Shown here piece after piece: positions 4,327 to 15,753 of a stretch of 64,000 bases of DNA (within the stretch, counting starts at the first letter, position 1; every line of letters begins with the position of its first letter). Source of the stretch: a bacterium (GTDB taxonomy: Bacteria > Desulfobacterota > Binatia > HRBIN30 > CADEER01). The notes under the pieces are model-generated. The model made no database searches. It had not been told where the DNA came from and worked only from the letters and a program-made list of their open reading frames with translations. Location: NCBI GenBank assembly GCA_031401035.1, contig JANNRA010000032.1, positions 59,472 through 123,471 on the forward strand. The letters run 5' to 3'. A program made the position numbers and the translations under genes.

Positions 4327-5493
4327 CTACGCCAGCGCGGCGCTGGCCGCCGCGACGCCCACCCCGGGTCGCACTGCGTACCCGCAGCTCGGCAACAACC
4401 GCTCGAGTGCGTGCAACACCAGCAGCACGTTGGCCACCGTGCTCGACTCGCCCATCAGACCGATCCGCCACACTTTCCCCTTCAGCGGACCGAGTCCCCC
4501 GCCTATCTCGAGCTGGAACTCCTCCAGCAATCCCTTCCGCAACGCCACATCATCGACCCCGGCCGGAATCGCGACGCTGTTGAGCATCCACAGCCGCCGC
4601 CCCTCCTGCGCCGCCAGTTCGAGCCCCAGTGCGGCGAGTCCGGCCGCCAGCCCCTGGTGATGTCGCTGGTGGCGCGCCCAGCGCGCCACCAAGCCCTCCT
4701 CGTGTACCAGGCGGAGCGCTTCGAGCAGCGCGTAGTTCATCGAGATGGGCGCGGTATGGTGGTAGACGCGTTCCTCGCCCCAGTACTTCTCGATCATCGT
4801 CAGGTCGAGGTACCAGCTCTGCACCTTGCTGCGGCGGGCGCGCAGCGCCGCGACGGCGCGCGGGCCGAAGGTGAGGGGCGCCAGCCCTGGCGGGCAGCTC
4901 AGGCATTTCTGCGTCCCGCTGTAGCAGGCGTCGATCAGCCACTCGTCGACGCGTACCGGGCAGCCGGCGAGCGAGGTGACGGTGTCGACGACGAATAGTG
5001 AGCCGGCCTCGCGGACGACGCGGCCGATCTCCTCGAGCGGCTGCCAGGCGCCGGTCGACGTTTCGGCGTGCACCACCGCTACCAGTTTCGCACCGGGGTG
5101 GTTGTGTAGCGCGGCGCGGATGGAGTCGGGCTCGATGACCCGGCCCCACGGCGCCTCGACGGCGACCGAACGCGCCCCGCAGCGCTCGACGATGTCAGTC
5201 ATGCGCGTGCCGAACACACCGTTGACGCCGACGATGGCCGTATCGCCCGGCTCCAGGAGGTTGACCAGGCACGCCTCCATGCCGGCCGAGCCAGTAGCGG
5301 AGATGGGAATGGTCAGCGTGTTGGCGGTCTGAAAGGTGGCGCGCAGCAGCGTCTTGGTCTCCTCCATCATGGCGACGAAGACCGGATCGAGATGACCGAT
5401 CAGGGGCGCCCCGAGGGCGGCCAGGACGCGGGGGTGAGCGGCGCTCGGGCCGGGGCCGAGCAGAACGCGGGGCGGCGGAGAGATCGTCGTCAT
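4327..5493 (-). CDS. Class V aminotransferase (alanine--glyoxylate / serine--pyruvate aminotransferase-like)
   Basis: MTTISPPPRVLLGPGPS... with the SGTQKCL PLP-lysine motif. It is about 389 aa and divergent from glcDEF. The start was placed at the internal Met that fits family N-termini; the longer ORF extension runs through the palindrome and is considered an artefact. Confidence 0.8.
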   Translation of the reverse strand: MTTISPPPRVLLGPGPSAAHPRVLAALGAPLIGHLDPVFVAMMEETKTLLRATFQTANTLTIPISATGSAGMEACLVNLLEPGDTAIVGVNGVFGTRMTDIVERCGARSVAVEAPWGRVIEPDSIRAALHNHPGAKLVAVVHAETSTGAWQPLEEIGRVVREAGSLFVVDTVTSLAGCPVRVDEWLIDACYSGTQKCLSCPPGLAPLTFGPRAVAALRARRSKVQSWYLDLTMIEKYWGEERVYHHTAPISMNYALLEALRLVHEEGLVARWARHQRHHQGLAAGLAALGLELAAQEGRRLWMLNSVAIPAGVDDVALRKGLLEEFQLEIGGGLGPLKGKVWRIGLMGESSTVANVLLVLHALERLLPSCGYAVRPGVGVAAASAALA

Positions 5494-5503
5494 GGCCAGG
5501 ACG

Positions 5504-5551
5504 GAAAACACAGATGGCGGCGGATGGCCATCCGCCGCCATCTGTGTTTTC
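5504..5551. promoter_or_regulatory. Perfect 48-bp palindrome (24+24 nt, no spacer), a putative operator or RNA hairpin, centred in a divergent intergenic region
   Basis: GAAAACACAGATGGCGGCGGATGG|CCATCCGCCGCCATCTGTGTTTTC read directly from the sequence. It starts 10 nt from the aminotransferase start at 5493 and ends 10 nt before the glcD ATG at 5562, so it is exactly centred in the 68-bp spacer. Confidence 0.5.
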
Positions 5552-5561
5552 TGCGACCCGT

Positions 5562-6989
5562 ATGCTCGCTGCACCGCTCGCCGCCGCGCTCGCCGACCTG
5601 GTCGGCGAGGAGGGGCTGATCACCCGCCCGGCAGACACGCGCGTCTATGAGTGCGACGGCTGGACGCTCGAACGGCGGGCGCCTGACGCGGTGGTGCTGC
5701 CGCGCACGGCGGCTGAGGTGGCGGCGGTGCTGCGGCTGCTGCATGCGCGCGGCATCGCCTTCGTGCCGCGGGGCGCCGGTACCGGGCTGTCCGGGGGAGC
5801 GCTGCCGCTCGACGCGTCGGTGATGATCTGCACCAGCCGCCTGAAGCGCATCGTCGACATCGACCTGGCCAATTGCCGCGCCGTGGTGGAGGCGGGGGTC
5901 GTGAACCTGGCCGTGACGCGCGCCGTGGCGGCGCAGGGGCTCTTCTACGCGCCAGACCCGTCCAGCCAATCGGCCTGCACCATCGGCGGCAACATCGCCG
6001 AGAACTCCGGCGGGCCGCACACGCTGAAGTACGGCGTCACGACGAACCATGTCCTCGGGCTCGAACTGGTGCTGCCGGATGGCGAGGTCGTGGAGCTCGG
6101 TGGAGCGGCGGAAGACGTGCCGGGCTACGATCTGCGCGGCCTCGTCATCGGCGCCGAGGGGACGATGGGGGTTGTGACCCGGGCGACGCTGCGCCTGACG
6201 CCGGTCCCGGAGGGTGTACGGACGCTGTTGGCGGTATTCGAGTCGGTCGACGACGCCTGCACCGCGGTGTCGGGCATCATCGCCGCGGGGATCGTGCCGG
6301 CGGCCCTGGAGATGATGGATCAGCTCATCGTCCAGGCCGTCGAGGCCGCCTTCCACGTCGGCTTTCCGGTCGACGCCGGCGCCGTGCTGTTGGTCGAGCT
6401 CGACGGCGCGACGGCCGAACTCGACGAACAGGCGATCGCGGTGGAGACGATCTGCCGGGCGCATGCCGCGCGCGAGGTGCGCCTCGCCGCCGACGCCGCC
6501 GAGCGCGCCGCCCTGTGGAAGAGCCGCAAGCGCGCCTTTGGGGCCGTCGGCCGCCTGGCGCCGAACTACTGCACGCAGGATGGCGTCGTGCCGCGCACGA
6601 AGGTGCCCGACATCCTGCGCGCCATCAGCGCGATCGCCACCAGGCACGGCCTGCGTATCGCCAATGTCTTCCACGCCGGCGACGGGAACATCCATCCGAT
6701 TCTGCTCTATGACGAGCGCGACGCGGACGAGGTGCGGCGCGTCATTGCCGCCGGCCACGAGATCTTGCGCGCCTGCGTCGATCTCGGCGGCAGCATCACC
6801 GGCGAGCACGGCATCGGCGTCGAGAAGATTCAGGAGCTGTCGCTGCTCTTCGGTCCCGCCGATCTGTTGGTGATGCAGCAACTGCGCGGCGCCTTCGATC
6901 CGCTCGGACGCAGCAACCCGGGCAAGATCTTCCCGACCCCGGGGACGTGCGTCGAGGTGTCGCGACCGCACCGCCAGGTGGCGCTGTGA
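5562..6989 (+). CDS. glcD: Glycolate oxidase FAD-linked subunit GlcD (FAD-binding oxidase, PCMH-type)
   Basis: It has the VVLPRTAAEVAAVLRLLHARGIAFVPRGAGTGLSGGA FAD-binding signature, is 475 aa, and is first in the glcDEF order. Confidence 0.85.
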   Translation: MLAAPLAAALADLVGEEGLITRPADTRVYECDGWTLERRAPDAVVLPRTAAEVAAVLRLLHARGIAFVPRGAGTGLSGGALPLDASVMICTSRLKRIVDIDLANCRAVVEAGVVNLAVTRAVAAQGLFYAPDPSSQSACTIGGNIAENSGGPHTLKYGVTTNHVLGLELVLPDGEVVELGGAAEDVPGYDLRGLVIGAEGTMGVVTRATLRLTPVPEGVRTLLAVFESVDDACTAVSGIIAAGIVPAALEMMDQLIVQAVEAAFHVGFPVDAGAVLLVELDGATAELDEQAIAVETICRAHAAREVRLAADAAERAALWKSRKRAFGAVGRLAPNYCTQDGVVPRTKVPDILRAISAIATRHGLRIANVFHAGDGNIHPILLYDERDADEVRRVIAAGHEILRACVDLGGSITGEHGIGVEKIQELSLLFGPADLLVMQQLRGAFDPLGRSNPGKIFPTPGTCVEVSRPHRQVAL

Positions 6990-8315: not shown

Positions 8316-9587
8316 ATGGCTGGGGAACTACGCGATGCGCGACCGGCGACATTGAACGCGCCACGGCCCAGCGGCCGGGTGGCCGATGCCGCGCTCCTGC
8401 GTGCGTGCGTCCACTGCGGCCTGTGCCTGGAGGCCTGCCCGACCTACCTCGAGCTGGGGACCGAGGCGGACTCGCCGCGTGGCCGCATTCATCTCATTCG
8501 CGCCCTCGAGGACGGCACGCTCGGTCTCGATGCCGAGGTCGTGCGCCACATCGATCTGTGCCTCGGTTGCCGAGCCTGCGAGAGCGCTTGTCCCTCCGGC
8601 GTTCGATATGGAGAGATTATCGAAGAAGCGCGCGGCTACGTCGAAGAGCACGCCAGGCGTCCGTGGCCCGAGCGGCTGCGCCGGCAGGCCATCCTGGCGC
8701 TGTTCCCGTATGCGTGGCGGATGCGCGTCGCGCTCTGGTTTTCCGACCTGGCGCGCGTTATCGGCGTCTGGCCGCTGGTGACGCGCCTCGTCGCCGGGGC
8801 CGACCTCCTGCCGGCGGCGCGGCAGCGCATGCCGGACGGAGCCTTTCATCCGGCGCACGAGGGCGAGCGCCTGCGCGTCGGCCTGCTGACGGGCTGCGTG
8901 GCGGGGGAGCTGTTCGGGGAGGTGAACGCCGCGGCGGTGCGGGTGTTGAACCGCGCCGGCGCCGCCGTCGTCGTGCCGCCGGGGCAGGGATGCTGCGGCG
9001 CGCTGCATCTGCACGCCGGTGATCGGGAGTCGGCGCGCACTTTCGCCCGGCGCAATCTGGATGCCTTCCCGGACGAGGTCGACGCGGTCGTGGTGACAGC
9101 GGCCGGCTGCGGGGCGGCGATGAAGGAGTACGGGACCCTACTCGACGGCGAGCCGGGGTACGGCGAGCGGGCTCGCCGCTTCGCCGCCCGCGTCCGCGAC
9201 GTCACCGAGGTGCTCGACGCGGTCGGCGTTGCGCCCGGCACGCGACCGCGGCCGCTGCGGGTTGCCTACCACGACGCCTGCCACTTGGCGCATGCGCAGG
9301 GCGTCCGCGATCAGCCGCGGCGCCTCCTCGCCGGCGTCACAGGACTGGAACTGGTAGAACTCGGCGAGTCCGACGTATGCTGCGGCAGCGCTGGCAGCTA
9401 CAACCTGACGGAGCCGGAGATGGCGCGGCGCCTGCGCGAGCGCAAGATCGATCATATCCTCGCCAGCGGCGCCGAGTGTGTGGCGGCGGCCAATCCCGGT
9501 TGTGCGCTGCAGATTCGCGCCGGCCTGGCGGCGCGCGGCTCAACCGTGCGCGTCGTCCATCCGGTCGAGTTGCTCGACGAGTCGTAG
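8316..9587 (+). CDS. glcF: Glycolate oxidase iron-sulfur subunit GlcF
   Basis: Two 4Fe-4S ferredoxin motifs (CVHCGLCLEACPTY and CLGCRACESACPSG) are followed by CCG-domain cysteines (CCGALH, CCGSAG). The ATG lies 2 nt after the glcE stop. Confidence 0.8.
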   Translation: MAGELRDARPATLNAPRPSGRVADAALLRACVHCGLCLEACPTYLELGTEADSPRGRIHLIRALEDGTLGLDAEVVRHIDLCLGCRACESACPSGVRYGEIIEEARGYVEEHARRPWPERLRRQAILALFPYAWRMRVALWFSDLARVIGVWPLVTRLVAGADLLPAARQRMPDGAFHPAHEGERLRVGLLTGCVAGELFGEVNAAAVRVLNRAGAAVVVPPGQGCCGALHLHAGDRESARTFARRNLDAFPDEVDAVVVTAAGCGAAMKEYGTLLDGEPGYGERARRFAARVRDVTEVLDAVGVAPGTRPRPLRVAYHDACHLAHAQGVRDQPRRLLAGVTGLELVELGESDVCCGSAGSYNLTEPEMARRLRERKIDHILASGAECVAAANPGCALQIRAGLAARGSTVRVVHPVELLDES

Positions 9588-9589
9588 GG

Positions 9590-10600
9590 TCAGTCGCGCA
9601 GCAGGACGTCGGTGCCCAGTCGCAGCGTGCCGAGCCAGCGGCGTAGCAACGGCGAGCGCTGCACCACCCCGCGCAGCTTGACGATCGCCAGCCGCTCGAG
9701 GCGGTAGCGATCGAGAGCTTTCCGCGCCGGCGTCGCTCCGGCCGCGTCGGCGGCCTCGAGCGGCGCCCAGAGCCCCTCGAGCGGATGCTTCCAGGTGGCG
9801 AGGTCGGCGGGGTCTAGGCGGGCGATCATTGCCTGGCAGAGGCGTAGCCGCTCCGGCTGCGCGGCGATCTCGACCGCCCATTTGTCGACCGACACGGTGC
9901 TCGGGCGCGAGTGCTGCTTGACGCCGATGGGATCGCCGAGGCCGGCCGCGGCGGGTTCGTGCTGGCCGTACTCGACCGCCTGCGGTTCGTTCGGGACGCC
10001 GAGAAAGGTGAAGATCTCGCCCAACACGCGCTCCGGGTCGGCGACCATCTGCTCGTAGACGACGTGGTAGATCGGTACCGGCCGGGTGCGCAGGAATCGT
10101 GCGATCGCCGGCACGTAGCGCTCGAGCAGCGGGTTGTAGTCGTGCGCGGCGGGGTAGTCGCCGTTGAAGAACGACTCGGCGTAAGAGCTGAAGACGGCGA
10201 GTGGGTGGCGCGTCAGGACGACGTACCGCGCCTGCGGGTAGATTCTCGCCATGAAGTCGAGGATCAGGCCATTGGCTGGCGTCTTATCGAGTATCAGGCG
10301 CTTCTCGGGTCGGGTCGCCAGCATGCGGTGATACAGCGTGTCGCAGTAGGCGCGACACGCGTCGATGTAGTCCTGTTCGCCGCCGGGAAGGCCGGCGACA
10401 AACTGGCGTTGCGCCTCGGCGGCCAAGACGGCGTCGTACGGCGCCCTGTCGACCTTGGCGTAGTAACCCAGGTGCGCGAGCGGGGTCAGGAGGTGTGGCT
10501 CCGGGCGGCCCATGATCTGCGAGTGGGCGCCGATCATGCGCGCCAGCAGGGTGGACCCGGAGCGCGGCGGGCCGATGACGAAGAGCACCTTGTCGTCCAC
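9590..10600 (-). CDS. PAPS-dependent sulfotransferase family protein
   Basis: It has the 5'-PSB motif VIGPPRSGSTLLARM and the 3'-PB motif LTRHPLAVFSSY. It is 336 aa from a GTG start; the longer ORF upstream is the antisense of the acyl-CoA synthetase and was rejected. Confidence 0.7.
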   Translation of the reverse strand: MDDKVLFVIGPPRSGSTLLARMIGAHSQIMGRPEPHLLTPLAHLGYYAKVDRAPYDAVLAAEAQRQFVAGLPGGEQDYIDACRAYCDTLYHRMLATRPEKRLILDKTPANGLILDFMARIYPQARYVVLTRHPLAVFSSYAESFFNGDYPAAHDYNPLLERYVPAIARFLRTRPVPIYHVVYEQMVADPERVLGEIFTFLGVPNEPQAVEYGQHEPAAAGLGDPIGVKQHSRPSTVSVDKWAVEIAAQPERLRLCQAMIARLDPADLATWKHPLEGLWAPLEAADAAGATPARKALDRYRLERLAIVKLRGVVQRSPLLRRWLGTLRLGTDVLLRD

Positions 10601-10650
10601 GATCGGCGGACTGTACCAGCGGCGGTGCCGGCAATCGAGCGCCGAGTGGG

Positions 10651-12171
10651 TCAGGCGAAGAGCAACGTCACCGCCGGCTTGCGGACCTTGCCCATCGGAT
10701 TGCGGGGCAGGTCGTCGACGATGCGCAAGAGGGTCGGGACCTTGTACGGGGCGAGGTGCTGTTTGGCCCAGGCGCGCAGCTCGTCGATGGCGAGCGTCGC
10801 TCCGGGTACCAGGATGGCGGCGACGCCGACGCGCTGACCCCACTCCTCGTCGGCGACGCCGACGACGGCGCACTCGGCGATGGCCGCATGAGTCCGCAGC
10901 ACCTCTTCGATCTCGAGCGCCGAGACCTTGAAGCCGCCGGTCTTGATAATGTCGATCGAAGCGCGGCCGAGAATGCGCAGACTTCCGTGCTCGCACACGG
11001 CGACGTCGCCGGTGCGGAACCACCCGTCGGCGGTGAATGCCTCTCGGGTCTCCGCGGGCCGGCGCCAGTATTCCTGGAACACCCCACGGCCGCGCACCTC
11101 GATCGCGCCAGGCGAGCCGTCGTCGACCGGTTGGCCGGCCTCGTCCACCAGCCGCACGTCGACGCCGGGGAATGGAACCCCCACATGCCCGGGTTGCCGC
11201 ACCCCGTGCAGTGGATTGCCGAGGCCCATGCCGATTTCCGTCATACCGTAGCGTTCGAGCAGGGTGTGCCCACTGATCTCGCGCCAGGCTTCCAGCAGCG
11301 CGACGGGTAGGGCGGCGGAGCCCGAGACCATCAGCCGCAGACGTCGCGCCCCACTGCTCAGCGCCACACGACGCGGCTCGGGCGCTGCCTCCCAAGCGCT
11401 GCGCAGCCGCGCGTAGATGGTCGGGACGGCCATGAACAGCGTCAGGCTGGGGTCGGCGGCGAGGCGCGTCCAGACGGCGTCGACGTCGAAGCCCTCCTGC
11501 AACTCGCAGACGGCGCCGGCCCACAGGGCGCAGCAGAGGACGTTGAGGATGCCGTGCAGGTGGTGCAGCGGCAGAACATGAAGGATGCGGTCGTCGGCGG
11601 ACCATTCCCACGCTTCGACCACCGAGGCGATCTGCGCCGCCAGCCCGGCGTGGGTCGTGACGACACCCTTGGGACGACTTGTGGTGCCGCTGGTGTACAG
11701 GATCATGGCGCGGCGCTCGCTGGCCCCCTCGGGCAGCGGCGCCGGCGCGCGCTCGAGCAGGTGCTCGATGCTGACGAAACGTCGACCCCGCTGGCGCGCC
11801 AGCGGGGCGATGCGAGCGGCGTAGCGGGCGTCGGCGACGATGATTGCGGCGTCGGAATCGTCGATGGCGTAGCCCAGCTCCGGCGCCGGATGTGTCGTGC
11901 AGAGCGGCACCGCGACGCCGCCGGCGCGCCAGATGCCCCACTGCGCGGTCACATGCGCGCAGCTCGGCCCGACCAGGAAGGCGACGCGTGCTTCTGACAG
12001 GTCCGCGACGCCGTCGAGCAGCCCTGCCGCGACCTGCGCGGAGGTCGCGAGCAGGCGCGCGTAGTCCCAGGTCCCGTCCGGCGCGATCAACGCCGGCCGT
12101 GCGGCGAAGCGGCCGGCGCGCTCGATGATATCCATGGGCGCTCGCGCGGTGTCAGTCCCGTCTCGGCTCAC
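10651..12171 (-). CDS. AMP-dependent synthetase/ligase (acyl-CoA synthetase family)
   Basis: AMP-binding motif ILYTSGTTSRPKGV, plus ...YGMTEIG..., GWFRTGD and the C-terminal PRNPMGKVRK. An alternative start is at Met13 (12135). Confidence 0.8.
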   Translation of the reverse strand: MSRDGTDTARAPMDIIERAGRFAARPALIAPDGTWDYARLLATSAQVAAGLLDGVADLSEARVAFLVGPSCAHVTAQWGIWRAGGVAVPLCTTHPAPELGYAIDDSDAAIIVADARYAARIAPLARQRGRRFVSIEHLLERAPAPLPEGASERRAMILYTSGTTSRPKGVVTTHAGLAAQIASVVEAWEWSADDRILHVLPLHHLHGILNVLCCALWAGAVCELQEGFDVDAVWTRLAADPSLTLFMAVPTIYARLRSAWEAAPEPRRVALSSGARRLRLMVSGSAALPVALLEAWREISGHTLLERYGMTEIGMGLGNPLHGVRQPGHVGVPFPGVDVRLVDEAGQPVDDGSPGAIEVRGRGVFQEYWRRPAETREAFTADGWFRTGDVAVCEHGSLRILGRASIDIIKTGGFKVSALEIEEVLRTHAAIAECAVVGVADEEWGQRVGVAAILVPGATLAIDELRAWAKQHLAPYKVPTLLRIVDDLPRNPMGKVRKPAVTLLFA

Positions 12172-13172
12172 GGCGCGAAGGCCGACAGGATCCGCTCATT
12201 GTTCTCCCGCACGCGTTCGCTGGGCACGCCCACCGAGGGCGCGTAGAAGAGCACTTCGTCGCAGAGGCCCTCCCACTGGCGCAGCCGATCGCGCGCCTCG
12301 TCGGGCGTGCAGGCGATGGCGATCTCATCGACCATCGCGTCGGGAATAGCCGCCGCCATCGCCGCGACGTCGAAGGATGCCAGGGCCGCTCGACACGCGT
12401 CGGCGACCTGCGGCAAGCCATGCAGGCGCAGGATCGTGTGGTAAACCTTCACCGTGTAGTAGAAGCCGATCTGCTGCTTGGCATCCTGTAGCGCCACGGC
12501 GCGATCAGAGTTGATCGAGGTCAGCACGTAGGGCACCAGCCGGCAGGCGCCGGCCGGGCGGCCGGCGGCGGCCTCGGCGGTGCGCAGGGTGGGCAGCGTC
12601 ACCTCGCGGTGCCAGCGGCGCGTTGCAATCGGATGGCCGACGACGCCGTCGGCGACGGCGCCGGCACTGCGCAGCATCGGCTCGTTGACGGCCGCCACCC
12701 ACAGCGGCAGGTCCGGGCGCGCGCCGGGACGCATGTAGACGGGGATGGTGAGGTCCCAGAAACGGCCCTTGAAACGGAAGCCGAAGCCGGCGGCGGCGCG
12801 GAAGGCGGCGCGCAGCAGCTCGACGAGTTCCTTCATCCGGCCGGCCGGCTTCTCGAACGGCACGCCCCACCAGTCGACGTTCATGCGCCGTGTGCCGCTG
12901 CCGAGCCCGAGCACCATCCGCCCGCCGGACAGCTCATCGAGGTCCATCGCAGCCGTGGCGTGCACGAGCGGCGCGCGGGTGAAGGCGTTGGCGATGCCGG
13001 TGCCGATCTGGATGCGCGAGGTGGTGGCGGCGATGGCGCCGAGGACGGCGAAGGCGTGCTGGTTGAAGAACTCGACCGTCAGCACGGTGTCGAAGCCGGC
13101 TCGCTCGGCCTCTTGTGCCAGGGTCAGGTTGCCGCGTGCCGAGCCGGCGGTGAGGATCAGTCCGCGTCGCAT
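12168..13172 (-). CDS. Luciferase-like monooxygenase (LLM) class oxidoreductase, possibly F420-dependent
   Basis: The 334-aa product has LLM-family composition (...GRMVLGLGSG..., TIM-barrel length). Its stop overlaps the acyl-CoA synthetase start by 4 nt. F420 rather than FMN dependence is an inference from family and context. Confidence 0.7.
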   Translation of the reverse strand: MRRGLILTAGSARGNLTLAQEAERAGFDTVLTVEFFNQHAFAVLGAIAATTSRIQIGTGIANAFTRAPLVHATAAMDLDELSGGRMVLGLGSGTRRMNVDWWGVPFEKPAGRMKELVELLRAAFRAAAGFGFRFKGRFWDLTIPVYMRPGARPDLPLWVAAVNEPMLRSAGAVADGVVGHPIATRRWHREVTLPTLRTAEAAAGRPAGACRLVPYVLTSINSDRAVALQDAKQQIGFYYTVKVYHTILRLHGLPQVADACRAALASFDVAAMAAAIPDAMVDEIAIACTPDEARDRLRQWEGLCDEVLFYAPSVGVPSERVRENNERILSAFAP

Positions 13173-13211
13173 CGTCCTCTCCTTCGAGCCCTGATCACAG
13201 AGCCCCGGATG

Positions 13212-13955
13212 CTAGCTCACCAGTCCCAGTCCGCCGTCGACGACGACGATCTCGCCGGTCATGTAGCGCGACTGGATGACGCCGAAGATCGTCTCGGCGA
13301 TGTCCTCGCCGGTCGCCGAGCGTCCGAGCGGGGCGTTCTGTGCGACGAGCGCGTGCAGCCCGGCCCAGTCCTGGGTCCACGGCGTCGCAACCAACCCCGG
13401 CGCCACGGCGTTGACGCGCACCGGGCCAGAGACCTTGGCGAGGAGCTGGGTGAGGTGGTTGATCGCGGCCTTCGAGACGGCGTACGGAATCGAACTGCCG
13501 GTCGGTCGCACGCCGGCGACCGACGTGACGTTGACGATGACGCCGGACGGACTTCGTTTCAGCGCCGGCATGGCGGCGCGGCAGAGGTACCAGGTCCCGA
13601 GCAGGTTGACGTCGAGAATGCGGCGGAAGACCTCGTCGGTGACGGCGTCGAGATCGGCATGCGGGATGAGCTGGGTCGTGCCGGCATTATTGACCAGGAT
13701 GTCGAGGCGGCCGAAGCGCGCCAGCGTCGTGCCAATCAGCGCCTGGCAGGCGGCCTCGTCGGCGACGCTGCCTTGTACGTAACAGGCGTTGGGGAGGGAG
13801 GTGGCGACGCGTTCGCCGGCCTCGACCGACGTCGAGGAGTTGATCACCAGCGCCGCGCCGGCGGCGGCGAGGCGCCGGGCGGTCGCCTCGCCGATGCCGC
13901 TGGAGGAGCCGGTGACGACGGCGACCTGGCCGGCGAGCGCGTCGGATGCCGTCAC
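13212..13955 (-). CDS. Short-chain dehydrogenase/reductase (SDR)
   Basis: VAVVTGSSSGIGEATARRLA (TGxxxGxG), NNAG, and the catalytic S...YAVSKAA motif. The GTG start overlaps the upstream stop (GTGA). Confidence 0.8.
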   Translation of the reverse strand: MTASDALAGQVAVVTGSSSGIGEATARRLAAAGAALVINSSTSVEAGERVATSLPNACYVQGSVADEAACQALIGTTLARFGRLDILVNNAGTTQLIPHADLDAVTDEVFRRILDVNLLGTWYLCRAAMPALKRSPSGVIVNVTSVAGVRPTGSSIPYAVSKAAINHLTQLLAKVSGPVRVNAVAPGLVATPWTQDWAGLHALVAQNAPLGRSATGEDIAETIFGVIQSRYMTGEIVVVDGGLGLVS

Positions 13956-15064
13956 TGGGCGGCGACCGGCTGGTCGTTGTTCGACGTCTTCTGCATGAAC
14001 TGCATGAGCAACTGGACGAGTTCCTGCGGCGGCGTCGTCTCGGGATCCTCGACCGAATCCTTGAGATGCTCGAACTGCAGCAGGTCGAGCTTGGCGTAGG
14101 CCTCGCGCACGCGCGGGGTGAGCAGGCCAAGGCGCTTCAGGTTGGGCACGATCTTCTGGAACATCATCTGCCGGAAGCCGCGCATGAACGGGGTCGTCTC
14201 CGACCACGCCGTCCACACCTTGGGATCCCAGCCGAGGTGTTCGAATACCGGCGTCGGGACGAGGCGCTCGCGCAGCAGGTGGGTGGCTTCGATGACGAAG
14301 TCCTCGCGCTCGCGCAGCTCCGTGGCGCTCATCTGGTTGGTGTACAGATCAGACAGCGACAGGACGCCGAAGGCGACGTGGCGGGACTCGTCCTGCATGA
14401 CGCGCGTGATGAGGTCCTGGATCAGCGGCTCGTCCATCATCTGCATGCGGGTGACGCCGAAGGCCGCCAGCGCCAGGCCCTCGACCATGATCTGCATGCC
14501 GAGGAAGGTGACGTCCCAGCGCGAGTCGCAGACGATGTCGTCGAGCAGCCGGTTCAGGCTCGGCACGCATTCGTACGAGAGGCCCAGCTTCTCGGTCAGG
14601 TAGCGATGGTAGACCTCGACGTGGCGCGCTTCATCCGCCACCTGGTTGGCGGCGTAAAACTTCGCCTCTTCCCACGGCACGCCCTGGACGATCTTCGCCG
14701 TCGCCACCAGCGCGCCCTGCTCGCCGTGCAGGAACTGCGACAACATGAAGGCGTTCATATTGAGCTGGAACTCGATGACCTGCTCGTCGCTCAGCGGCGT
14801 CGGCGGGTTGAGGAGCGAGTTCATCAGCGCCGGCATGCCGTTGGCCACGCGCTGCTTCACCATGCGTTCGATGTTGACGTCGATCGACCAGTCGAGGTCG
14901 TTGGCGTTCCACGTCTGGGTCTTACCCTTCTCGTAAAGGGCGAGCAGGTTCTGCTTCTCGAGCGCATACTTCCAATCGAAGACGGTATCGATGGTGGCGC
15001 GCACCGACTCGAAGGCCGGCCCGCCCTTCCGCAGCGGCAGGGGGTTGTGCTGGGTGTACTGCAT
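13952..15064 (-). CDS. Ferritin-like diiron-carboxylate oxygenase (AurF / acyl-ACP-desaturase-like)
   Basis: Two E...EXXH ligand pairs are present: ...HGEQGA...DEARHVEVYHRY and ...MVEGLA...QDESRHVAFG. The product is 370 aa. Confidence 0.65.
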   Translation of the reverse strand: MQYTQHNPLPLRKGGPAFESVRATIDTVFDWKYALEKQNLLALYEKGKTQTWNANDLDWSIDVNIERMVKQRVANGMPALMNSLLNPPTPLSDEQVIEFQLNMNAFMLSQFLHGEQGALVATAKIVQGVPWEEAKFYAANQVADEARHVEVYHRYLTEKLGLSYECVPSLNRLLDDIVCDSRWDVTFLGMQIMVEGLALAAFGVTRMQMMDEPLIQDLITRVMQDESRHVAFGVLSLSDLYTNQMSATELREREDFVIEATHLLRERLVPTPVFEHLGWDPKVWTAWSETTPFMRGFRQMMFQKIVPNLKRLGLLTPRVREAYAKLDLLQFEHLKDSVEDPETTPPQELVQLLMQFMQKTSNNDQPVAAQ

Positions 15065-15066
15065 CT

Positions 15067-15753
15067 TCAGGTCCTCCTCCGGTCGCGCGCCGCCGGACGG
15101 CGGCGCGGCTCGATGCCCACGTAGCGGAGCACCAGGGTGGTGATTTCGCGCTGCAACTCGTCGTCGCCGAGGGCGCGGCCGCCCGCATGCGTCTCCTCGA
15201 TCAGGACATGCTGCTGCATGATGGCGAAGGCCGTCTGGATCGCCAGGGCGATCGCCAGCGGCGGATCGGGATGGGTCATGTCCTCCCGCCGCGCCAGCAG
15301 CAGGGCGCTGAGGCGCTCCTCGACGCTGCGCCGGAAGCGCAGGCCGCCAGCGAGGATCACCGGATCTTCGAGGGCGCGGGCGAGGAAGGCGGCGATCATG
15401 TGGCGCCGCTCGCGCGTCGTCGTCACCAACTCGGCCACCGCCGCCTCGACGATCGCCGTCGTCGGCGCATCGGCCCAGCGCGTCGCGTCGGCCAGGCGTT
15501 CGACGCGCTCGGAGAGCTCGAGAAAGTGCTGCTCCTCGAGGGCGCGCAGGAGCTCGTTCTTGTCGCGGAAGCGGGCGTAGAAGCCGCCGACGGACGACCC
15601 GGCGCGCCGCGCGATTTCCGGGACTGACACTGCCCGGTGGCCCTTGGCGACGATCAGTTCCTCGGCGGCCGCGAGCAGTCGGCGCAGTGTCTGTTCGCTG
15701 CGCGCCTGCTTCGGCCCGCTGACGGTCTGGAGGTGAGCTACGAACGGCATCAA
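15067..15753 (-). CDS. TetR/AcrR family transcriptional regulator
   Basis: N-terminal HTH ...LLAAAEELIVAKGHRAVSVPEIARRAGSSVGGFYARFRDKNELL. It is first gene of the minus-strand cluster 15753->9590. Confidence 0.8.
   Translation of the reverse strand: MMPFVAHLQTVSGPKQARSEQTLRRLLAAAEELIVAKGHRAVSVPEIARRAGSSVGGFYARFRDKNELLRALEEQHFLELSERVERLADATRWADAPTTAIVEAAVAELVTTTRERRHMIAAFLARALEDPVILAGGLRFRRSVEERLSALLLARREDMTHPDPPLAIALAIQTAFAIMQQHVLIEETHAGGRALGDDELQREITTLVLRYVGIEPRRRPAARDRRRT

Follow-up and report, generated by a model that had tools for sequence, protein, structure and literature searches.

A perfect 48-bp palindrome between divergent aminotransferase and glcDEF genes as two mirrored copies of a candidate start-codon-proximal regulatory module

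In an uncultured bacterial lineage that is known only from metagenome-assembled genomes and is Binatia-like by its closest named homologues, a perfect 48-bp palindrome lies at the center of the 68 bp that separate a class-V aminotransferase gene from the divergent glcDEF genes. Comparison with related loci indicates that this palindrome consists of two conserved 24-nt modules abutted head-to-head with no spacer, and that the conserved feature is the module tied to each start codon, not the dyad. We consider it somewhat probable that the two mirror copies act as gene-proximal cis-regulatory modules, exerting promoter-proximal control at the DNA level, with their arms kept alike by template switching. 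Overall, the element is real and conserved and probably regulatory, and it most likely represents a shared promoter/operator region of a familiar kind.

The window, by which we mean the whole 64-kb stretch of DNA analyzed here, was compared with related loci that carry L numbers below. Of the loci closest to it, L004 is a contig of GCA_031404875.1 whose aminotransferase is 99% identical, and L011 is a 185-kb JGI metagenome contig whose aminotransferase is 95% identical. The genes flanking the palindrome are as follows:

4327-5493, minus strand: class-V (alanine/serine-glyoxylate type) aminotransferase, 388 aa, Pfam Aminotran_5
5562-6989, plus strand: glcD, 475 aa, Pfam FAD_binding_4 and FAD-oxidase_C, with orthologues called at 475 aa
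6986-8314, plus strand: glcE, 442 aa in L004, Pfam FAD_binding_4 and FAD-oxidase_C, start set from the L004 gene call
8352-9587, plus strand: glcF, 411 aa in L004, Pfam CCG and Fer4, start set from the L004 gene call

Homologues of the aminotransferase are named alanine-glyoxylate aminotransferase in their sources and run to 386-391 aa; this agreement in length, together with that of GlcD at 475 aa, supports both start codons. The taxon labels of the close homologues are inconsistent, ranging over Deltaproteobacteria, Candidatus Binatia, Candidatus Dormibacteraeota and plain "bacterium" (P0122, P0125, P0005, P0073). Convergent with glcF lies a minus-strand cluster (9590-15753) encoding TetR-family, DUF455/AurF-like, SDR, luciferase-like, AMP-binding and sulfotransferase proteins. 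Its TetR-family ORF (15067-15753) is the regulator nearest to the palindrome and the sole one within about 10 kb; it stands 9.5 kb away in a separate cluster, which it probably serves. In the neighborhood of the window locus and in L004-L008, we found no regulator that adjoins the glc locus or is specific to the clade, GntR-family regulators included.

The palindrome and its parts, with their immediate flanks, are:

5504-5551, no strand: perfect palindrome of 24+24 nt with a loop of 0 nt, read here as two mirror copies of the conserved module
5528-5551, plus strand: glcD-proximal 24-nt module, CCATCCGCCG + CCATCTGTGT + TTTC, ending 10 nt before the glcD ATG
5504-5527, minus strand: aminotransferase-proximal 24-nt module, the identical minus-strand sequence, whose end is 10 nt from the aminotransferase ATG
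5528-5537, plus strand: distal degenerate 10-nt unit CCATCCGCCG, with its mirror copy at 5518-5527 (minus strand)
5538-5547, plus strand: proximal 10-nt repeat unit CCATCTGTGT, with its mirror copy at 5508-5517 (minus strand)
5494-5503, no strand: variable 10-nt flank from the palindrome to the aminotransferase start; position 5496 is C, T and G in the window, L004 and L011, respectively
5552-5561, no strand: variable 10-nt flank from the palindrome to the glcD start; positions 5558-5559 are CC in the window and AT in L011

The two arms, 5504-5527 (GAAAACACAGATGGCGGCGGATGG) and 5528-5551 (CCATCCGCCGCCATCTGTGTTTTC), show 100% complementarity and abut directly (0 nt apart), so that the two distal units meet as a central GGATGG/CCATCC (the slash marks the center). 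The ATG codons lie at 5493 (aminotransferase, minus strand) and 5562 (glcD, plus strand), which leaves exactly 10 nt on either side. Neither gene is preceded by a Shine-Dalgarno-like motif, and such motifs are patchy across the genes of this lineage. At 69% GC and a per-pair match probability of ~0.286, we calculate that ~6e-9 perfect 24-bp palindromes would be expected per 64 kb. With up to 3 mismatches allowed, the half-site matches the window nowhere else, none of 100 shuffles contained any match, and all other short-range inverted repeats in the 64 kb reach at most 89% complementarity. The palindrome is thus far beyond chance and unique in the window. An assembly artifact is ruled out by its presence in three independent assemblies (the window, L004 and L011), with the same 48 bp in both L004 and L011.

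The initial annotation had described a perfect 24+24 palindrome without a loop, centered in the 68-bp spacer and 10 nt from each start, and alignment of the arms bears this out; its statements that chance is a very unlikely origin, that neither gene has an obvious Shine-Dalgarno sequence and that no regulator gene is adjacent likewise hold. It had also dismissed the reading frames that run through the palindrome. Each arm contains an in-frame ATG, giving extended ORFs at 5514-6989 (plus strand) and 4327-5574 (minus strand), and gene callers use this codon: glcD is called at 491 aa in GCA_031404875.1 (L004 8505-9980) and, on the L011 contig, the called aminotransferase (P0121) has 411 aa. Since a further relative, L089, has ACC/GGT where the arm ATG stands, the resulting small ORF or N-terminal extension MAADGHPPPSVFS is spurious, as the annotation had judged, and the extensions are annotation artifacts. 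By starting at the arm ATG, gene callers therefore make both flanking genes too long in public annotations. A similar over-extension affects the aminotransferase of L006/L007, which is called at 391 aa from an ATG inside the box.

The divergent aminotransferase/glcDEF arrangement is widespread among relatives, where its spacers fall into two types. One type defines a clade of at least 82% protein identity that comprises the window, L004, L011, L089, L005, L006/L007, L009, L090, L091 and L092. At any spacer length, the box CCATCTGTG[G/T]TTTC ends 9-10 nt before the glcD ATG in this clade, and its reverse complement lies 9-10 nt before the aminotransferase ATG. When the 50 nt upstream of each start were right-justified across nine lineages, a consensus module, CCATC[C/T]G[C/T]GNNCATCTGTG[G/T]TTTC, was found to precede both genes. 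It does so 9-10 nt from each ATG in the window, L004, L011, L005, L090, L091 and L092. In L009, the module stands before the aminotransferase start, and the contig stops at the glcD-side box. L089 has a variant form in which the CATCTG core of the proximal unit is lost from both arms, and L006/L007 have variants that retain only TCTGTGGTTTG or TGGTTTG from the box. The aminotransferase-side arm of the window (5504-5527) most closely resembles the aminotransferase-side modules of L005, L091 and L092, and the counterparts of the distal unit in relatives read CATCCGCGC, CATCGGCG or CATCTGTG.

The DNA between the two modules measures 0 nt in the window clade and L089, about 55-100 nt in L005 and L090-L092, and more than 130 nt in L009; it is unrelated in sequence among lineages, and its center is not conserved. 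Because the distance varies from 0 to more than 130 nt, the modules belong each to its own gene and not to a fixed dyad. A mismatch-tolerant search of 645 kb of related loci found no module outside these spacers.

The module itself is repetitive. On the glcD side of L090, L091 and L092, the CATCTGTG unit occurs in 3-4 tandem copies with a 10-nt period (3.8-4 copies by TRF), and a 20-nt super-period outscores the 10-nt period in the same three loci. The aminotransferase side of L090-L092 holds 2-3 more degenerate units. The window arm corresponds to two units, that is, one 20-nt pair (CCATCCGCCG + CCATCTGTGT) plus TTTC, and the CATCTGTG motif occurs nowhere else in the window. Tandem repeats with a period of ~10-11 bp next to a promoter, the signature of a direct-repeat box, are thus present at this locus. 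In L090 (1898-1937), L091 (191-229) and L092 (2882-2920), the 10-nt units alternate between …GTGGC and …GTGTT, a pattern that fits pairwise recognition.

The arms are also conserved beyond what neutral change allows. Between the window and L011, the palindrome shows 0/48 differences, while the four-fold sites of the flanking genes differ at 122/529 (23%; 22-24%); the corresponding four-fold divergence between the window and L004 is 2-6%. Among the window, L004 and L011, 3/20 flank positions vary. By our calculation, zero change in 48 neutral sites at 23% divergence has P ~3e-6, or ~2e-3 if the palindrome is counted as 24 independent sites. This disparity between palindrome and neutral sites indicates purifying selection on the arm sequence.

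L089 is more distant, at 88% protein identity and with 40% divergence at four-fold sites, and its 68-bp spacer contains a palindrome that is perfect over 46 bp. Relative to the window, GAT is replaced by ACC in its left arm and, in exact mirror image, ATC by GGT in its right arm: three adjacent pairs have changed on both sides, none on one side only, 20 are invariant and the outermost one is broken. Shuffling reached this mirrored pattern in 5/500 trials, in a test that comprises only four sequences and one event. Mirrored multi-nucleotide changes with no one-sided intermediates, as expected of inverted repeats homogenized by template switching, are therefore seen in these four sequences and this one event. 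The arms thus evolve in concert, and template switching may be what keeps them identical. This process is documented to perfect quasipalindromes in E. coli (PMC7202029). One such event can create or preserve a perfect stem while changing several bases in a compensatory way (PMC8794818), and inverted repeats in promoters have their arms homogenized by it (PMC13100816). Upstream of the module, the junction in relatives reads GGTGG/CCATCC, and this quasipalindrome could have been the seed of the perfect short form.

The second type of spacer points to where a promoter might lie. Sister-type spacers (L008, L013, L015, L093 and also L012) lack the module, and the sister lineages carry a sigma-70-like promoter, TTGAGC-N17-TAGC(G/T)(T/A), that ends 9-11 nt before the glcD ATG. 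A promoter this close to the ATG implies a very short leader and a near-leaderless glcD mRNA in these lineages. The canonical promoter upstream of glcD is found at:

L008, 5893-6000
L013, 636-687
L015, 1858-1916
L093, 477-528

The -10 hexamer TAGCTA of L008 and L013 is itself palindromic and might act bidirectionally.

In the module clade, the module sits where the core promoter lies in sister lineages. Since all else in the 68-bp spacer varies, any promoter within it must lie in the palindrome. A scan of 5300-5760 found no sigma-70 consensus in or around the palindrome, and no -10 element of the form TAnnnT on either strand. The hexamer at the position of the sister -10 element is TGTTTT (or TGGTTT), which has no A at position 2; an A at this position is near-universal in -10 hexamers. 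The missing consensus and the missing A count against the proposed promoter role. Read by eye as a sigma-54, ECF-type, CRP-like, GntR-like or LysR-like site or as a DnaA box, the motif fitted none, and we know of no transcription-factor site that it matches.

From these comparisons we infer protein binding, a promoter role and co-regulation of the two units. One copy of the module would serve the aminotransferase gene and the other glcDEF, the two being fused head-to-head in the window. Each module would consist of one 20-nt pair of 10-nt direct repeats (CCATCNGNNN; best-conserved form CCATCTGTG) followed by TTTC, 9-10 nt before the start. These helical-turn-phased repeats would be bound by a putative trans-acting factor, probably an oligomer that binds direct repeats, which would sit at or overlap the core promoter of each gene. 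In this manner, the conversion of glycolate to glyoxylate by GlcDEF and of glyoxylate to glycine by the aminotransferase could be switched together. The perfect symmetry would have two causes, namely purifying selection on each arm and concerted evolution of the arms, the latter through intrastrand template switching in a replication hairpin that copies a change from one arm to the other. We favor a role at the DNA level because the primary sequence is kept in a fixed register with the start codon and the repeats are one helical turn apart. Two further points weigh against this model: no candidate regulator is encoded nearby, and strict sequence-specific recognition is awkward to maintain because L089 has lost the CATCTG core and L006/L007 keep so little of the box.

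An unlikely alternative, though the likeliest of those considered, is that the palindrome acts as RNA. If one or both promoters lay past the palindrome, in the opposite gene, each mRNA would open with a 22-24-bp hairpin, 10 nt before a start codon that lacks a Shine-Dalgarno sequence, and this hairpin would stabilize the 5' end or gate the ribosome. The predicted hairpin of the 48-mer is very stable on both strands (-41 kcal/mol, z = -9.7). Moreover, each clade spacer folds as one long hairpin (z = -4 to -8) and sister spacers do not (z ~0 to -2), with the exception of L012, which has a separate palindromic insertion. The mirrored substitutions in L089, the different near-perfect palindrome in L006/L007 and the failure to see a sigma-70 promoter in the spacer would fit the same explanation. 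Much of the clade-wide fold, however, follows automatically from mirrored arrays of one motif, and template switching alone predicts mirrored changes equally well without selection on RNA (PMC8794818). An RNA role also leaves the 10-nt and 20-nt direct-repeat periodicity unexplained, requires both promoters to lie within the opposite coding region when the glcD promoter of sister lineages adjoins the ATG, and does not account for sequence kept across lineages beyond pairing or for long forms that are mismatched every 4-5 bp. In a permissive Rfam search nothing exceeded the gathering threshold, the best hits being miRNA-precursor models at 37 bits against a threshold of 100 bits.

A terminator scan flagged the same hairpin at 5520-5545 (plus strand) and 5535-5510 (minus strand), where it is followed by GTTTTC. 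We rejected an intrinsic bidirectional terminator: the T-run is 4 nt here and 2-3 nt in relatives against the 5-6 nt or more that is needed, and the element lies upstream of both genes. We consider the flag a false positive.

Less likely than an RNA role is a bolder version of the DNA-level model, in which the palindrome is a self-mirroring promoter-operator. One 24-nt module would then be the whole control region of two divergent units, read by a putative uncharacterized factor or by a non-canonical promoter specificity; hairpin copying would maintain the symmetry, and cruciform extrusion driven by the supercoiling of divergent transcription would provide feedback.

Less likely again is a single dyad operator, in which the whole 48 bp, or its central GGATGGCCATCC, is bound by a single symmetric dimer or tetramer as the repressor of both promoters. 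The perfect symmetry, the compact 12-bp palindrome at the center and the position between divergent genes are what such an operator would look like, but across orthologous loci the half-sites show no fixed spacing (0 to >130 nt), the halves are separated in module-bearing relatives by variable, unrelated DNA with no conserved center, and a dimer needs neither 24-bp half-sites nor a perfect center. The initial annotation had offered an operator for a dimeric regulator and, if transcribed, a 5' hairpin as its two readings, of which the first is partly supported and the second is weaker. From the first we retain a cis element that is not random, is probably functional and would control both genes together; the single 48-bp dyad falls with the variable module spacing. 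Of the second, the stable predicted fold stands, and its function as a hairpin is disfavored by the sequence conservation, the mismatched long forms and the 10-nt periodicity.

We regard it as very unlikely that the palindrome persists as a neutral, functionless by-product of an inverted duplication or of template switching. Template switching readily perfects quasipalindromes (PMC7202029, PMC8794818), and unrelated palindromes have arisen in the same spacer in L006/L007 and L009. Against this, the palindrome shows no change where neutral sites have diverged by 23%, concerted evolution by itself does not slow substitution, and the module is kept on both sides in at least seven lineages.

The spacer does appear prone to palindrome formation. 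In L006 (5414-5497) and L007 (3929-4012), another near-perfect 17+17 palindrome, GCCGCCAAGACGCCAAG-GG-CTTGGCGTCTTGGCGGC, lies between remnants of the outer boxes, and its sequence is unrelated to the interior of the window palindrome. The spacer of L009 (1-164) exceeds 160 nt, with the contig ending within it; its outer boxes are perfect, and its interior forms a stem of ~36 bp with three GTGAGCC repeats per arm. In L012 (2861-3139) and L014 (upstream of 435), a 278-nt spacer forms one long hairpin upstream of an otherwise canonical glcD promoter. It contains the repeats GGCGTTCGGCGTTCC / GGCGAACGCCAAACG and GCGGCTGCGCCGC, and it may represent a lineage-specific insertion of REP or MITE type.

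That the window palindrome is itself a REP-, BIME- or MITE-like dispersed element, here by accident, can scarcely be credited: it resembles one as a GC-rich hairpin flanked by A- and T-runs, and the L012/L014 and L009 spacers hold other palindromic insertions, but it is single-copy with no partial copies in 64 kb, occurs across the 645 kb of related loci in this spacer only, keeps an orthologous position and a fixed register to both starts across lineages with 40% neutral divergence, and lies between divergent start codons and not at gene 3' ends or between convergent or co-directional genes. When 185,579 reference genomes were searched with 20 nt of the half-site, three single, one-sided matches appeared, all in unrelated taxa and attributable to chance, and no viral contig matched the element; the dispersal that the initial annotation had named as weakening an operator is therefore not seen.

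If the module-based model is right, glycolate oxidation and glyoxylate transamination would be co-regulated from one symmetric region with no adjacent regulator, unlike in the GlcC/GlcR paradigm. The spacers of this locus form a series from a canonical promoter through long imperfect mirrored arrays to a 48-bp perfect palindrome, and provide a clear natural example of regulatory inverted repeats arising, contracting and staying symmetric through concerted evolution.

Several known systems share individual features with this element. Regulation of glcDEF by GntR/FadR-family regulators encoded beside the operon is established for GlcC in E. coli and GlcR in Paracoccus denitrificans (PMC11323563). 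As in those systems, a short divergent region upstream of glcD would here hold the regulatory sites of glycolate oxidase. In GlcC/GlcR systems, glcDEF diverges from the gene for its own regulator, and the sites are short palindromes of the GntR type. At our locus an aminotransferase gene takes that place, no regulator lies nearby, with no GntR-family gene beside glcDEF in the window neighborhood or in L004-L008, and the sites are paired direct-repeat modules. Winged-helix response regulators such as PhoB (at the pho box) and OmpR bind head-to-tail units about one helical turn apart, beside or across the promoter and often as ~20-22-bp pairs. Our module recalls such boxes in its 10-nt and 20-nt periods, a likeness that does not imply membership, and it differs from them in its motif, in arrays that come as close as 14 nt to the start codon and in being mirrored for two genes. 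Bidirectional promoters can arise from sequence symmetry through overlapping AT-rich -10 elements (Warman et al., bioRxiv 10.1101/2020.01.31.928960; PMC12825309), and one symmetric segment would similarly drive two divergent genes here, although this palindrome is 48 bp long, GC-rich and without a recognizable -10 element. REP/BIME elements and bidirectional terminators are likewise GC-rich hairpins with A- and T-runs, whereas the element described here is single-copy, locus-specific and placed between divergent rather than convergent genes, with a T-run of 4 nt. With template-switched inverted repeats (PMC8794818, PMC13100816, PMC7202029) it shares perfect arms, a mirrored multi-nucleotide change and a location in a promoter region, the process in our case being judged from four sequences. 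Overall, the element is best filed in the broad class of inverted-repeat cis-regulatory regions between divergent genes, of which it would be a lineage-specific member with unusually clear homogenization of its arms.
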